From contig JACOTW010000002.1 in the NCBI GenBank assembly GCA_016178135.1, positions 77,043-141,042 on the forward strand: DNA of 64,000 nucleotides, in the 5' to 3' direction. This stretch comes from Candidatus Saccharimonadota bacterium (GTDB taxonomy: Bacteria; Patescibacteriota; Saccharimonadia; Saccharimonadales; JACOTW01). The notes beneath the pieces were generated by a model. The model was given only the letters and a program-made list of their open reading frames with translations, was not told the origin of the DNA and searched no databases. Position numbers and translations under genes: made by a program. Shown piece by piece: positions 32,977-43,628 of this stretch. Each line of letters begins with the position of its first letter. The stretch's first letter is position 1.

Positions 32977-33006
32977 TTGACACATCTGTATTGAGCGAGT
33001 TAAGAT
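32977..33006 (+). promoter_or_regulatory. Candidate sigma70-type promoter of the 16S transcription unit
   Basis: TTGACA (32977-32982), then 17-18 nt, then TTAAGAT (33000-33006). Confidence 0.55.
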
Positions 33007-33063
33007 GTACTCTACGCTTCGTGAGTGCTTGTATTTGGGTGTCTTGTGAGGTGTTTGAACGTT

Positions 33064-33096
33064 AAAAACTTATATAGTGCAAATCAACGTCAGTTC
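33064..33096 (+). other. 5' half of the 16S precursor processing stem
   Basis: AAAAACTTATATAGTGCAAATCAACGTCAGTTC is complementary to 35789-35823 (GAACTTGACGTTTGATTTGCACTATAAAAGTTTTT). Confidence 0.7.
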
Positions 33097-34724
33097 ATAT
33101 TGAACTATGTTTTGAAAATTAAGTCAGAATTCTAGATTTTCTAGATGTTCGACTGAAGTTCATGATTAGATTCTTTTTTGGAGAGTTTGATCCTGGCTCA
33201 GGATGAACCTCGCTCCGTAGGAGCGGTGAATTGTTGTCGGCGTTTACGCCGCCAGCGTTCATGTGGTTTATCTTGGCCTTGACCAGCCTTCATTTTTTTT
33301 GGAGAGTTTGATCCTGGCTCAGGATGAACGCTGGCGGCGTGCCTAATACATGCAAGTCGAGCGGAAAGGTTCTGCACTTAGTATTTGACTTCGGTAAGTC
33401 CCGCATATGCGGGATACTGCCAAGAAACGTATTTTCTAGGCTAGAAAATACTGTCGAATTTTAAGTGTAGAATACTCGAGCGGCGGACGGCTGAGTAACA
33501 CGTAGGAACGTACCCCAAAGTGAGGGATAAGCACCAGAAATGGTGTCTAATACCGCATGTGATCTTCGGATTAAAGGATTTATCCGCTTTGGGAACGGCC
33601 TGCGCATGATTAGCTTGTTGGTGAGGTAAAAGCTCACCAAGGCGATGATCATTAGCTGGTCTGAGAGGATGACCAGCCAGACTGGGACTGAGAACGGCCC
33701 AGACTCCTACGGGAGGCAGCAGTAGGGAATTTTCCACAATGGGCGAAAGCCTGATGGAGCAACGCCGCGTGCAGGATGAATGCCTTAGGGTTGTAAACTG
33801 CTTTTATCTGTGAAGATTATGACGGTAGCAGATGAATAAGGATCGGCTAACTCCGTGCCAGCAGCCGCGGTCATACGGGGGATCCAAGCGTTATCCGGAA
33901 TTACTGGGCGTAAAGAGTTGCGTAGGTGGCAGAGTAAGTAGGTAGTGAAAGCGTCCCGCTCAACGGGATATACATTACCTAAACTGCTCAGCTAGAGGGC
34001 GAGAGAGGTTACTAGAATTCCTTGTGTAGGAGTGAAATCCGTAGATATAAGGAGGAATACCGATGGCGTAGGCAGGTAACTGGCTCGTCCCTGACACTAA
34101 GGCACGAAAGCGTGGGGAGCGACCGGGATTAGATACCCCGTTAGTCCACGCCGTAAACGATGGATGCTAGCTGTTAACCGTATCGACCCGGTTAGTAGCG
34201 AAGCTAACGCGTTAAGCATCCCGCCTGTGGAGTACGGTCGCAAGACTAAAACATAAAGGAATTGACGGGGACCCGCACAAGCGGTGGAGCGTGTTCTTTA
34301 ATTCGATGGTAAGCGAAGAACCTTACCAGGGTTTGACATCCTTGGAATTTCTCTGAAAGGAGAAAGTGCTTTATTGAGCCAAGTGACAGGTGTTGCATGG
34401 CCGTCGTCAGCTCGTGTCGTGAGATGTTTGGTTAAGTCCATCAACGAGCGCAACCCTTATAGTTAGTTGGATTTTTCTAGCTAGACTGCCCCGGTAACGG
34501 GGAGGAAGGAGGGGATGATGTCAGGTCAGTATTACCCTTACACCCTGGGCTAGAAACACGCTACAATGGCCGGTACAAAGGGCTGCCAAGTCGCGAGACG
34601 GAGCAAATCCCATCAAAGCCGGTCTCAGTTCGGATAGCAGGCTGAAACTCGCCTGCTTGAAGCTGGAATCGCTAGTAACGGTAGGTCAGCACACTACCGT
34701 GAATACGTTCCCGGGTCTTGTACA

Positions 34725-35525
34725 AAATAAATGCGCCTGGCAGCGCATTGGACTAAGTGGTGTAAATCCACTTTCATAGCTGCGAGCAGGGCATCTCTGG
34801 TAACAGAATGCCTGAAGGGCTCTATATGCGAATAGTAGTCTTTACAATCAAAAGGCGCTTCGACCCTACAATGTGTACATAGGGGAAGAAGACAAGAAAA
34901 GCCTGTAAGGAATGCTAGAAATAGCCCAATGCGTGACCCAGGGAGATCCTGTTGTCGAAGAGTAATTGTTTCGCTGCATAAGCGAATAGACAGCAGGAAG
35001 TCAGCTGAGTTCATAGTATTTTTTATAGTAAAATGTAAAGAAGAAGGAATGAACCTTATGCTGAATCCACAATACATTGTTGGTTTTGTTGACGGAGAAG
35101 GGTGCTTTAGCATCACTATCAATAAAAACGGCGATAGGTTACCAGAAGTTCGTCTCATTTTTGAGATAGAACTTCGGGAAGATGACGAACCAATCTTGCG
35201 AGAGATCCGAAAAGTTCTTGATTGCGGTAATATTTACCACTTAGAGTACGAGCGTTATGCCAAATGGCGACCGCACGTTAAGCTTAAAGTCAGCAATTTT
35301 AATGACATATCGCAAAAGATTATTCCATTTTTTCAACGGTATCCACTTCAAGCAAAGAAGCGTTTGCAGTTTGAACAGTTTTGCTTAGTTGCAGAGCTTA
35401 TAAAGCGCAAACAACATCTTACAATTGAAGGAGTAGAGCAGATTCGAACCTTAAGGCATAAGGACTCGCGTAGTGCGTTAGACGCGCACGCTACGTGGGG
35501 AGCGCCGGAAATTACCCGAGCGCAA
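34725..35525 (+). mobile_element. Intervening sequence / intron-like insertion in 16S at about E. coli 1396/1397
   Basis: The flanks reconstruct the universal ...CTTGTACA|CACCGCCCGTCA... (the 1392-1406 primer site). It carries a homing-endonuclease ORF. Confidence 0.85.
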
Positions 35526-35546
35526 TCACCGCCCGTCAAACCATGA
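35049..35546 (+). CDS. LAGLIDADG homing endonuclease (single-motif type) encoded in the 16S insertion
   Basis: 'YIVGFVDGEGCFSI' is the LAGLIDADG motif, and 'IIPFFQRYPLQAKK' is paralogous to the 23S intron ORF at 40707. The frame runs 21 nt into the downstream 16S exon before its TGA. The alternative start is 35058. Confidence 0.85.
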   Translation: MNLMLNPQYIVGFVDGEGCFSITINKNGDRLPEVRLIFEIELREDDEPILREIRKVLDCGNIYHLEYERYAKWRPHVKLKVSNFNDISQKIIPFFQRYPLQAKKRLQFEQFCLVAELIKRKQHLTIEGVEQIRTLRHKDSRSALDAHATWGAPEITRAQSPPVKP

Positions 35547-41256: not shown

Positions 41257-41999
41257 AAGTTCTGACCCGCACGAATGGAGTAATGATGTGGGCACTGTCT
41301 CAACGAAGAGCTCGGTGAAAGTGCATTGACGGTAAAGATGCCGTCTGTCCGCAGCAGGACGAAAAGACCCCGTGGAGCTTTACTACAGCTTGACATTGGG
41401 CATAGGGACAACATGTGTAGGATAGGTGGGAGACTTTGAAGCTTTGGCGCTAGCCGAGGTGGAGTCATCGGTGAAATACCACCCTTGTTGTTTTTGTGTC
41501 CTTACGGGGACCACAATTTGCAGAGCAAATTGAGTAATTAGTATGCAACATTTATCACATAAGATAAATTACGCAGTATTACTCACGATTGGTCTTCAAG
41601 TTCTGGTTCCTGGACAGTGTCTGGTGGGTAGTTTAACTGGGGCGGTTGCCTCCCAAAGAGTAGCGGAGGCGTTCAAAGGTTGGCTAGGTTCGGATGGAAA
41701 TCGAATCGATAGTGCATACGCATAAGCCAGCTTGACTGTGAGGCCTACAAGCCAATCAGACACGAAAGTGGGAGTAAGTGACCCGTTGTATCGGCCATTT
41801 ATGGCCATTGAACGTGGGATCGACAACGCAAACGGATAAAAGTTACCCCGGGGATAACAGGCTTATAGCGCCCAATAGTTCACATAGACGGCGCTGTTTG
41901 GCACCTCGATGTCGGCTCATCTCATCCTGGAGGGGGAGCACCTTCCAAGGGTCCGGCTGTTCGCCGGTTAAAGAGGTACGTGAGCTGGGTTCAGAACGT

Positions 42000-42765
42000 A
42001 AATTACATTGCGTTCTACCACTGAGAAGTGGTAAAGTACGGATGTACATCGCATCAATGGTACTAAATTCGACTAATATCGGTGAAACCTTACTTTAAAG
42101 TTTCGAACGACTTAAAAAGGCAATACCGAGGGAAGACGAAATCGAAAGTGACTCAAGAAGAAAAGGCCTACATAGCTGGATTTCTTGATGGTGATGGTTC
42201 AATCATGGCTCAATTAGTTTATCGTAAAGATTACAAATTGGGCTATCAGATACGAACCAGTATAGTTTTCTATCAGAAAACTAACCATCATGATTTCATC
42301 CTTTGGCTAAAGGACCAGTTAGGCTATGGTTATGTTCGCACGCGTCGTGACGGCATGAGCGAGTACGCCATAGTTGGCTTTAGGGAAGTTAGTCATGTGT
42401 TGACACTTCTGTATCCCTTTCTTCATCTCAAAAAAGCATTAGCTGAACGTGTTATTGCCCTTATAGAGCAACATCCGTCTCAGCGAAAACTAACTGCACA
42501 GCAATTGGTCGTTTTGAGTAAGCTCGTTGATAAAACAGCAAGTTTTAATTACTCTAAAAAACGAACTAATACGAGCATGCAAGTTATAGCTTTTTTGCGA
42601 GAGCACAAGATTTTTGTCCCCGTAGAGACTGATTCTGCCAAATAGACCGGGCAGATGAGATGGGACCCACAACTAATGGCCCATCATACGTCGACCCCTA
42701 GTCTCAAGCACATTGAGAAAGGGAGAAGATATAGTCCGTGCCATCAGAAATGGTGGAATTACACG
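42000..42765 (+). mobile_element. Group-I-like intron in 23S domain V at the I-CreI (Cr.LSU-type) site
   Basis: The exons rejoin to GGGTTCAGAACGT|CGTGAGACAGTTCGG. The 5' exon ends in U and the insert ends in G. Confidence 0.85.
42082..42645 (+). CDS. I-CreI-family LAGLIDADG homing endonuclease (23S intron 2)
   Basis: From memory of I-CreI: '[16 protein letters not shown]' matches 'YLAGFVDGDGSIIAQI', '[17 protein letters not shown]' matches 'GVGYVRDRGSVSDYIL', '[24 protein letters not shown]' matches 'LQPFLKLKQKQANLVLKIIEQLPS', and '[10 protein letters not shown]' matches 'NDSKTRKTTS'. The start codon is uncertain (GTG). Confidence 0.85.
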
Positions 42766-43478
42766 CGTGAGACAGTTCGGTTTATATCCGCTGTGGACGA
42801 TAGGAAATTTGAGGGAATTTGCTCGTAGTACGAGAGGACCCGAGTGAACGCACCGCTGGTGTACCAATTGTCATACCAATGGCATTGTTGGGTAGCTATG
42901 TGCGGACCAGATAAGCGCTGAAAGCATATTAAGCGCGAAACTGACCCCAAGATTAGATTTCCCGGAGATTTATCTCTAGAGGACCCTGAAAGACGATCAG
43001 GTTGATAGGCGCAAGGTGAAAGTGCGGTAACGTATTGAGCCGAAGTGTACTAATAGTCCCATCGACTTTTTACGACCCATGAAATGTGCGCCGCTAATCT
43101 GGACACTTGGCTTTGCCAGGCCTATAGATTAGTTTTTGACACAAGATGTGATATTTTGTTTATGATACTAAAGGAATAGTATTTTTGTACAACTCCTCTA
43201 GGCTTATTTACATAACGTTGATTTTGTAATCAAACGCACACCTCATGGTGAAGTGCATTGACTAGTTATTGGTGTTACCAAGAGGTAACACACGATCCTT
43301 ATACGGCATTTATTGAAATATATCACAAGTGGTATAGGCATTGTATAGACTATATCGTATATGGTATATTCATGGACATCAACAGAGCGCCTACGGTGCG
43401 GAATATGGAATATTGAAGATGCTTCAAAAAAGCTAACTTCTACCTTCTACCAATTTCCGTGTCATCGAGACGCGAAAA

Positions 43479-43590
43479 TTGGTGCCCATGGCGCGAGGGA
43501 AACACCTGTTCCCATCCCGAACACAGCAGTTAAGCCTCGCAGCGGTTACAATACTTGGGTTTTAACCCTGGGAAAATAGCACGGTGCCAA
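43479..43590 (+). rRNA. rrf: 5S rRNA
   Basis: TTGGTGCCCATGGCGCGAGGGAAACACCTGTTCCCATCCCGAACACAGCAGTTAAGCC...GGTGCCAA. The conserved CCCATCCCGAACACAG loop C/helix III block is present, and the ends pair. Confidence 0.9.
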
Positions 43591-43600
43591 ATTATATAAT

Positions 43601-43628
43601 GAGACCCCCAAAAGGGGTCTTTTTATTT
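43601..43628 (+). terminator. Rho-independent terminator of the 23S-5S unit
   Basis: GAGACCCC-CAAAA-GGGGTCTC followed by TTTTTATTTTT. Confidence 0.75.

Follow-up and report, generated by a model that had tools for sequence, protein, structure and literature searches.

A split rRNA locus in a Saccharibacteria genome: apparently separate 16S and 23S-5S units flanking an inverted tRNA-dcd cassette

Gene content of the locus

We analyzed the rRNA locus of a Saccharibacteria genome that was assembled as a metagenome bin. The whole stretch of DNA, 64 kb in length and referred to below as the window, contains a single copy of each rRNA gene. Annotation with Rfam and ARAGORN placed the one 16S, the one 23S and the one 5S gene on the plus strand. 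Between 16S and 23S lies a minus-strand cassette, which carries tRNA-Ala(TGC), tRNA-Ile(GAT) and dcd, a gene encoding a short dCTP deaminase-like protein. The 16S and 23S genes are oversized because of three introns that encode LAGLIDADG proteins, and their true limits were determined by reading the sequence and by comparison with the uninterrupted rRNAs of a relative (L008; related loci are designated by such numbers). The 16S unit consists of the following features:

32977-33006, plus strand: promoter-like site, TTGACA-18-TAAGAT, 10 of 12 consensus positions matched, predicted to function as the 16S promoter
33062-33096, plus strand: 5′ strand of a precursor stem of the RNase III type, located by folding
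33296-34724, plus strand: 16S exon 1, its junction defined by comparison with the uninterrupted 16S of L008
35527-35659, plus strand: 16S exon 2, ending in the anti-Shine-Dalgarno sequence
35789-35825, plus strand: 3′ strand of the precursor stem, located by folding and conserved in eight relatives
35831-35865, plus strand: terminator-like hairpin (35831-35856, 10-11 pairs) followed by a T-run

The 16S gene extends over 33296-35659, with its true 3′ end (GGATTACCTCCTTTCT) at approx. 35659. The 3′ end called by Rfam (34774) was rejected as the artefact of a forced alignment, because an 802-nt intron (34725-35526) interrupts the gene. The gene contains the sequence GGCGTAAAGAGTTGCGTAGG, which we take to be that of probe TM7-567. 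The two strands of the flanking stem form 33 bp (−40.2 kcal/mol, z = −9.6), and none of 200 shuffled sequences folded as well. In distant relatives TTGACT-18-TAGAAT is found upstream of the 16S stem.

The 16S leader has a peculiarity of its own. An exact 35-nt copy of the 5′ end of 16S is present at 33174-33208 (the original lies at 33295-33329), and the segment between the two copies at 33246-33262 is a perfect 17-nt reverse complement of 16S nucleotides 29-45. L010 and L016 lack this feature in their leaders. It may represent a scar or an element that pairs the leader with 16S.

The gap between 16S and 23S contains, besides repeats described below:

35882-36304, plus strand: hypothetical gene, with an open reading frame (ORF) of 113 amino acids (aa) at 35963-36304 and its own promoter-like site, TTGACA-17-TAATAT
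36382-36768, minus strand: dcd, encoding a dCTP deaminase-like protein of 128 aa, last gene of the inverted cassette
36893-36975, minus strand: 3′ half of a tRNA-Ile pseudogene, its T-loop split by an insert of approx. 57 nt
37018-37061, both strands: palindromic 20-bp hairpin abutting the 3′ end of tRNA-Ile, terminator-like on both strands
37057-37133, minus strand: tRNA-Ile(GAT), called by ARAGORN and Rfam
37134-37251, minus strand: decayed tRNA-Val(TAC) pseudogene, aligning with the intact tRNA-Val of L030, L029 and L022
37252-37294, minus strand: hairpin directly after tRNA-Ala, ending in CTCCACCA, found in four lineages with two compensatory pairs
37295-37371, minus strand: tRNA-Ala(TGC), called by ARAGORN and Rfam
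37391-37419, minus strand: promoter-like site of the cassette, TTGTAA-17-TAGAAT, aligning with TTGCCA-17-TAGAAT of the collinear loci L030, L029 and L022

The dcd product matches PF22769 (E = 4.6e-27) and scores 98.5 bits with TIGR02274, above the curated equivalog cut-off of 92.8; it covers only positions 72-157 of the 180 of this profile, and deaminase activity is a prediction. The protein is identical to HY003_00415 of a "Candidatus Saccharibacteria bacterium" and belongs to a family of more than 100 short proteins (approx. 125-135 aa), mostly from Saccharibacteria.

The tRNA-Val pseudogene shares its 5′ 19 nt with tRNA-Ile and has TCGTTAACACC where relatives have TCGTTTACACC. A reading of CTCCACCA together with the 19-nt tRNA-Ile 5′ end (37233-37262) as the scar of an Ala/Ile junction was dropped: L030, L029 and L022 have kept the hairpin after their tRNA-Ala, and the 19-mer is part of the decayed tRNA-Val. 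The hairpin itself (9679-9722 in L030) resembles a minihelix copy of the 3′ end of tRNA-Ala. As for the insert in the tRNA-Ile pseudogene, 50 nt of it are 100% identical in L015 (120-169), although identity in the neighbouring dcd is just 76%; it had no match in viral contigs and showed no exceptional folding stability.

The third group of features makes up the 23S-5S unit:

37970-37998, plus strand: promoter-like site, TTGACC-17-TAAGAT, with TG before the second hexamer
38161-38188, plus strand: 5′ strand of the 23S precursor stem, located by folding, with TTACCAATAACTAGTCAA conserved
38218-40549, plus strand: 23S exon 1, with several short expansion insertions
41258-41999, plus strand: 23S exon 2, defined by comparison with relatives
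42766-43075, plus strand: 23S exon 3, defined by comparison with relatives
43255-43281, plus strand: 3′ strand of the precursor stem, approx. 180 nt after the 3′ end of 23S (approx. 45 nt in L008)
43478-43592, plus strand: 5S rRNA gene (Rfam, 89.9 bits)
43601-43630, plus strand: terminator of the unit, a hairpin (43601-43621) followed by a T-run

The 23S gene extends from 38218 to approx. 43075; the Rfam end at 42101 was again rejected as resulting from alignment forced across introns. Its flanking stem (38161-38184 paired with 43258-43281) has a folding energy of −40 kcal/mol (z = −6.9). The spacer between 23S and 5S is 402 nt long, compared with 170-199 nt in relatives. Domain I of 23S (38480-38800) contains inserts of 44, 73 and approx. 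105 nt relative to the bacterial model and L008, and further inserts are found near exon-1 positions 527-613 and 1975-2130.

An earlier description of this DNA, made from its sequence and referred to here as the original prediction, had given 16S a promoter-like site, precursor stem and terminator of its own, 23S a separate stem approx. 2.5 kb further on, and 5S a position beyond an unusually long spacer and before a terminator; all of these features were recovered. The same applies to the genes it placed in the gap (a hypothetical gene, dcd, tRNA-Ile and tRNA-Ala on the minus strand) and to a repeat mosaic. Its "tRNA fragments" are the tRNA-Val pseudogene and the 3′ half of the tRNA-Ile pseudogene.

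The distance from the 3′ end of 16S (35659) to the start of 23S (38218) is 2,558 nt. The genes are therefore unlinked in the sense of Brewer et al. (bioRxiv 10.1101/705046), who require more than 1,500 bp between these ends. With dcd, tRNA-Ile and tRNA-Ala on the minus strand, the locus also belongs to the unlinked type D of Lui et al. 2021 (PMC8172020). It does not qualify as a canonical rrn operon, defined by co-oriented spacer tRNAs and the lack of a terminator between 16S and 23S, since the tRNAs lie on the minus strand and a hairpin with a T-run follows 16S.

Gene order in related loci and inversion of the cassette

With the short dcd as an anchor, approx. 20 distinct related loci were retrieved and annotated with Rfam, ARAGORN and BLAST. 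The comparison of gene order was based on a metagenome scan and on look-ups of exact proteins; a scan of genome contigs by dcd alignment yielded only two short loci.

Two collinear arrangements were distinguished. In type 1 the genes lie on one strand in the order 16S-Ile-dcd-Ala-23S-5S (L008, L016, L018, L010 and L011; L002 and L021 in part), and in type 2 the order is 16S-Ala-Val-Ile-dcd-23S-5S (L030, L029 and L022; L024 in part). The type-2 locus L030 reads gyrB-gyrA-DUF212-16S-Ala-Val-Ile-dcd-23S-5S-...-ROK-S1, and L029 and L022 share this order. In the window, gyrA (30098-32686) is the upstream neighbour of the 16S unit, and the 5S gene is followed by ORFs of 65 and 149 aa and a gene of the ROK family. 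Because L030 and L029 have the same neighbours as the window, gyrB-gyrA on the upstream side and ROK, S1 and IF2 on the downstream side, they represent the same chromosomal locus. The comparison across Saccharibacteria that the original prediction had proposed thus revealed a rearrangement, the collinear order being retained by ten lineages at the same chromosomal site, between gyrB-gyrA and ROK-S1.

The dcd gene is oriented opposite to 16S in the window, in L015, L025, L004 and L019, and in the distant locus L026. In L015, whose dcd is 80% identical to that of the window, 16S, dcd and tRNA-Ile show the same convergent layout. No 23S gene was found in L026 within the approx. 10 kb fetched beyond the cassette, and three other loci (L003, L027 and L028) have no rRNA gene in the vicinity of dcd.

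The minus strand of the window (37430-36760) aligns with the Ala-Val-Ile-dcd cassette of L030, L029 and L022, and shares with it the promoter-like site, tRNA-Ala, the CTCCACCA hairpin, tRNA-Val (decayed in the window) and tRNA-Ile. Because the alignment holds base for base, the cassette must have been flipped as a block together with its promoter; judged by this alignment, it is an inverted type-2 cassette.

The content of the junction between 16S and dcd differs in every inverted lineage, which fits later insertions at a permissive site. In the window the junction holds the 113-aa ORF, for which neither a family match nor a homolog in the related loci retrieved was found. The cargo lies at 7170-8406 and 5918-6751 in L004, where it includes a protein with a Cap15_CD_rec match, and at 731-1837 in L015. 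The junction between the 16S terminator and the 3′ end of dcd looks like a small hot spot for variable genes.

Two details of the collinear relatives concern the processing of the cassette transcript. The stop codon of dcd overlaps the first bases of tRNA-Ala (L008, 1897-1903; L018, 935), and therefore RNase P cleavage would strip the stop codon from the mRNA. On the other side, the end of tRNA-Ile lies only 12-20 nt before the dcd start.

Conservation of transcription and processing signals

A GC-rich hairpin with a T-run is located 158-222 nt after 16S in 12 of the 12 lineages with enough 16S 3′ flank, in collinear and inverted loci alike. It directly follows the 3′ strand of the processing stem. 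Since its stem sequences are unrelated between lineages, it is the structure and not the sequence of this hairpin that is conserved.

Upstream of the first tRNA of the cassette, a promoter-like site with 17-nt spacing is present in seven lineages (L008, L018, L016, L010, L022, L004 and the window). The 23S promoter-like site can be aligned between the window, L008 and L002 together with a leader hairpin, a boxA-like motif (TTTAACAATTT) and the stem strand, and L030 has TTTACA-18-TAAGAT at the equivalent place. The leader hairpin (ACTTGAGTTTA...TAAACTCAAG) is shared by the window, L008 and L002. The boxA-like motif (38110-38135 in the window) is intact in four of six aligned leaders and altered in L002 and L004. 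In L016 a terminator-like hairpin directly follows tRNA-Ala.

The original prediction had named the absence of its long-range stems from relatives as evidence against itself. Such stems were found in L016 and L010 for 16S, with different sequences, and in L008 for 23S (2854-2891 with 6041-6078). Both genes thus have the long flanking complementarity, kept in relatives, of an RNase III-type stem, and cleavage at these stems is predicted.

The terminator after 16S, the promoter of the cassette and the promoter of 23S are therefore already present in collinear relatives, which indicates that transcriptional uncoupling predates the inversion.

Dispersed repeats and comparison of assemblies

Both ends of the region are occupied by repeats:

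32722-32928, no strand assigned: two dispersed repeat modules between gyrA and the 16S promoter, forming an inverted pair with 37670-37884
37430-37900, no strand assigned: repeat mosaic drawn from three or more dispersed families, occupying the right-hand breakpoint

The mosaic includes a copy (37632-37798, 167 nt) that resembles a miniature inverted-repeat transposable element (MITE), with terminal inverted repeats of 39 nt. Copies of this MITE-like family occur at 1633-1805, 16513-16653, 24270-24440, 27933-28072, 32800-32928, 37629-37798, 51023-51193 and 54035-54175, and those of an 80-nt family at 2409, 7725, 10294, 16068, 32722, 37838, 45351, 48625, 48724, 52263 and 53957. With at least 8 to 11 copies per family in the window, some of them 99-100% identical, the repeats are not specific to the locus and represent families dispersed throughout the window.

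One inverted pair of 129 nt (32800-32928 and 37670-37798, 99% identical) brackets 16S and the cassette. We rejected it as a scar of the inversion: at least eight copies are present in the window, and recombination between the two would not restore the collinear order. Recombination within this pair would also flip 16S.

An assembly of the same organism at NCBI (L012) shows a different repeat mosaic downstream of gyrA (13756-14031, corresponding to 32642-32927 of the window); its gyrA frame runs into a repeat copy, which alters the 3′ end of the gene. This suggests a mis-join at repeats in one of the two assemblies. Neither the NCBI assembly nor two Logan contigs of this organism contain an 87-nt segment of the window (35881-35967) in which the 113-aa ORF has its promoter-like site, ribosome-binding site and start codon; the discrepancy reflects either an indel in the population or a difference between assemblies. 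Independent confirmation of the order 16S 3′ end, terminator, ORF, dcd (minus strand) and tRNA-Ile (minus strand) comes from the Logan contigs L013 and L014; the left half of the gap is thus confirmed by both contigs and by the related locus L015.

A repeat copy at 45351-45429 also lies within the N-terminal part of the ROK ORF (44583-45563, minus strand). This ORF was called with 326 aa, and its N-terminal extension is probably spurious, as its Pfam match begins at residue 105 and the ROK proteins of relatives have 271-272 aa. The idea that the repeat at 32722-32801 is a fragment of a ROK gene was dropped; extension of the ROK ORF over the copy at 45351-45429 is the likelier explanation.

Origin and transcription of the locus

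Taken together, these observations make it probable that the locus consists of three self-contained modules which are ancestral to the clade, that the middle one was inverted as a block, and that 16S and 23S are most likely transcribed from separate promoters. The 16S module would start with a promoter and a leader; next would come 16S, interrupted by one homing-endonuclease intron and enclosed by the two strands of an RNase III-type stem, and an intrinsic terminator would close the module. The minus-strand cassette would have its own promoter, followed by tRNA-Ala, the dead tRNA-Val, tRNA-Ile and the short dCTP deaminase gene. The third module would be composed of a promoter, leader, stem, 23S with two homing-endonuclease introns, the return strand, 5S and a terminator. 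This design would be ancestral to the Saccharibacteria clade, and present even where all three modules share one strand.

The cassette was inverted in this lineage and in others, which may have been feasible without loss of function because it carries its own promoter; lineage-specific genes and dispersed repeats would later have filled both breakpoints. The 16S and 23S rRNAs would most likely be made from two similar promoters (both with TAAGAT as the second hexamer) and not from one transcript. An autonomous middle module could be inverted (the window, L015, L019, L004 and L025), reshuffled (Ile-dcd-Ala versus Ala-Val-Ile-dcd) or parted from 23S (L026) at little cost. The locus would accordingly appear to be an already modular one that was reshuffled, and not a canonical operon recently broken.

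Several observations weigh against this interpretation. The promoters and terminators are consensus matches, presumed from sequence to work in vivo, and the region contains no more promoter-like sites than shuffled sequences do (18 found, 18.2 expected). Antitermination of rRNA transcription could carry the polymerase past the 16S terminator, and the 23S leader shares with the spacers of true operons a conserved boxA-like motif, TTTAACAATTT. The neighbour-joining tree was built from 128-aa dcd proteins and has no support values, which makes any count of independent inversions uncertain. Finally, the join between the cassette and 23S spans repeats of approx. 140 nt that are 99% identical to copies elsewhere and is unconfirmed by any independent contig, and the NCBI assembly departs from the window at two sites associated with repeats.

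The spacer tRNAs are inverted relative to those of collinear relatives, dispersed repeats and tRNA pseudogenes lie at the right-hand breakpoint, and a 99% identical inverted repeat of 129 nt brackets 16S and the cassette. These findings could be taken to mean that a canonical single-promoter rrn operon was recently broken by inversion and repeat invasion, the 16S terminator and 23S promoter having arisen or been captured afterwards. We consider this unlikely. The 16S terminator, the cassette promoter and the 23S promoter all occur in collinear relatives; the inverted state is common to relatives at 53-80% dcd identity and so is not recent; and the repeats number at least eight copies across the window, with a bracketing pair that would flip 16S instead of restoring collinearity. 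The original prediction had likewise described a canonical operon broken by rearrangement and repeats. The rearrangement is upheld by the collinear relatives, but the canonical starting point and the order of events are not: the ancestor was not a canonical operon, because dcd among the spacer tRNAs and the terminator after 16S were already present. As to repeat invasion as the breaker of the operon, the repeats are dispersed window-wide and fill the right-hand breakpoint, and nothing shows that they caused the break.

Could the locus still be co-transcribed? A termination-resistant polymerase starting at the 16S promoter would have to cross 2.5 kb of antisense tRNA and dcd sequence into 23S, the 23S promoter being auxiliary. 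The two genes share a strand and are only 2,558 nt apart, the 23S leader has a conserved boxA-like motif, and collinear Saccharimonadia loci (two tRNAs, 1-3 ORFs) count as operonic in Lui et al. 2021. Such read-through would meet a strong terminator of 10-11 pairs plus T-run, whose position is conserved in all 12 lineages, and would collide with convergent transcription of dcd and the tRNAs. It is further opposed by the promoter-like site at a conserved position before 23S and by L026, in which 23S is absent from the approx. 10 kb fetched beyond the cassette. We therefore regard co-transcription as quite improbable.

An assembly artefact, i.e. mis-joining of the order or orientation of 32.9-38.0 kb at near-identical repeats in a short-read metagenome bin, is very improbable: the flanking repeats (129-140 nt, 99-100% identical) do recur elsewhere and two assemblies disagree at 32642-32927 and 35881-35967, but the overall order is the same in the two assemblies, the region from the 16S 3′ exon to the minus-strand tRNA-Ile is covered by Logan contigs from two runs, L015 has the same convergent 16S/dcd/tRNA-Ile layout, and the flanking synteny matches that of relatives on both sides.

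The modular reading may be extended, although we offer the extension tentatively and lean slightly against it. All Saccharibacteria rRNA loci might be cryptically unlinked, so that even collinear ones, counted as operonic in the literature, would form three independent transcription units (16S, tRNA-dcd and 23S-5S). Matched promoters, and not co-transcription, would then balance 16S and 23S, the dcd mRNA would derive from a tRNA-punctuated transcript, and this modularity would permit repeated inversion or dispersal of the cassette.

Co-transcription is the textbook way of keeping 16S and 23S rRNA equal, and lineages that have abandoned it show that the two can be balanced by other controls. 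The locus is a well-resolved example in an evolutionary series that runs from collinear loci through inversion of the cassette to loci with 23S elsewhere, and suggests that uncoupling in this group is underestimated when loci are classified by gene order or distance. It also explains why long amplicons spanning 16S, the internal transcribed spacer and 23S fail for Saccharibacteria, and why automated rRNA calls misplace gene ends here.

Introns and other features of the window

Three introns, none of them mentioned in the original prediction, interrupt the rRNA genes:

34725-35526, plus strand: 16S intron, 802 nt, after E. coli position 1396, with a LAGLIDADG_1 ORF at 35049-35546 (Pfam, E = 5e-23)
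40550-41257, plus strand: 23S intron 1, at E. coli position approx. 1931, group I-like, with a LAGLIDADG ORF at 40707-41210 (Pfam, E = 4.8e-29)
42000-42765, plus strand: 23S intron 2, at E. coli position 2593, group I-like, with a LAGLIDADG ORF at 42082-42645 (Pfam, E = 4.2e-9)

Each encodes one single-domain LAGLIDADG_1 protein of 165-187 aa. The group I model RF00028 scores 39.5 and 31.8 bits on 23S introns 1 and 2, respectively (E = 2.6e-7 and 5e-5; gathering score, 50). The 16S intron, which has only approx. 320 nt outside its ORF, contains an element resembling group II domains D1-D4 directly before the ORF (34967-35049; RF01998, 43.9 bits; gathering score, 35), and no domain V/VI model matched it at E up to 10. 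The 23S insertions are absent from L008 at exactly these points, and none of the three introns was found in related loci covering these regions.

According to Tsurumaki et al. (bioRxiv 10.1101/2024.02.27.582315), homing hot spots in rRNA genes of the candidate phyla radiation (CPR) include 16S position approx. 1400 (site "16IS9", group II-like) and 23S positions 1931 and 2593 (group I-like). The 16S intron of the window lies at 16IS9, and the insertion sites, putative intron types and single-domain LAGLIDADG_1 enzymes agree with those of the survey. The Saccharibacteria were exceptional there, 64 of their 66 insertions being short and lacking an intron or endonuclease; in contrast to these mostly intron-free Saccharibacteria, the present genome has three such introns.

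Elsewhere in the window, a class A bacterial RNase P RNA is located at 17894-18262 (262.6 bits); it is ordinary in appearance.

Comparison with known rRNA loci

The canonical bacterial rrn operon (E. coli rrnA type) has a tRNA-Ile/tRNA-Ala spacer. The window resembles it in gene set, in the order 16S...23S-5S, in its RNase III-type stems and in the boxA-like motif of the 23S leader. It differs in that a terminator follows 16S, the tRNAs are encoded on the other strand with Ala before Ile, the spacer contains protein-coding genes and 23S has a promoter-like site of its own.

Thermus has a classical split rrn locus, with 16S apart from 23S-5S. Other examples are Helicobacter, Borrelia, Buchnera, Wolbachia and Mycoplasma gallisepticum (cited in PMC8172020). 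As in these, 16S of the window stands alone and 23S and 5S stand together, each unit with its own flanking stem. In the classical loci, however, the units usually lie at a large distance from each other, with loss or relocation of the spacer tRNAs, whereas the window keeps them between the units as an inverted, apparently autonomous cassette with a protein-coding gene.

Among closer relatives, two Saccharimonadia genomes were scored as "operonic by 2 tRNAs and 1-3 ORFs", with 1,456-1,959 nt between 16S and 23S (Lui et al. 2021, S1 Table, PMC8172020). Nanosynbacter lyticus TM7x is described as having a non-contiguous operon with a gene, called pyrD, and a hypothetical ORF in the spacer (2025 preprint, PMC12424978). 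Two tRNAs plus ORFs in the spacer fit our collinear relatives, while the cassette of the window lies on the opposite strand. In the collinear relatives an internal terminator and two internal promoter-like sites are indicated, and the papers on these loci do not name the ORF as dcd-like. Our literature search found no paper on dcd in the spacer, a conserved internal terminator or inversion of the cassette.

Unlinked rRNA genes are common in Patescibacteria (bioRxiv 10.1101/705046) and occur in 27 of 34 circularised CPR genomes (Lui et al. 2021, PMC8172020). The split arrangement described here is thus real but largely expected for Saccharibacteria, unlinked rRNA genes having already been published for this radiation. 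Like those loci, the window comes from a small genome, has single rRNA copies in its 64 kb and is of type D. The two studies classify by distance and strand only, whereas stems, promoter-like sites and terminators are mapped here. In the window, moreover, the split amounts to only 2.6 kb, lies at the ancestral site, and is due to inversion of the spacer cassette and not to dispersal of the genes.

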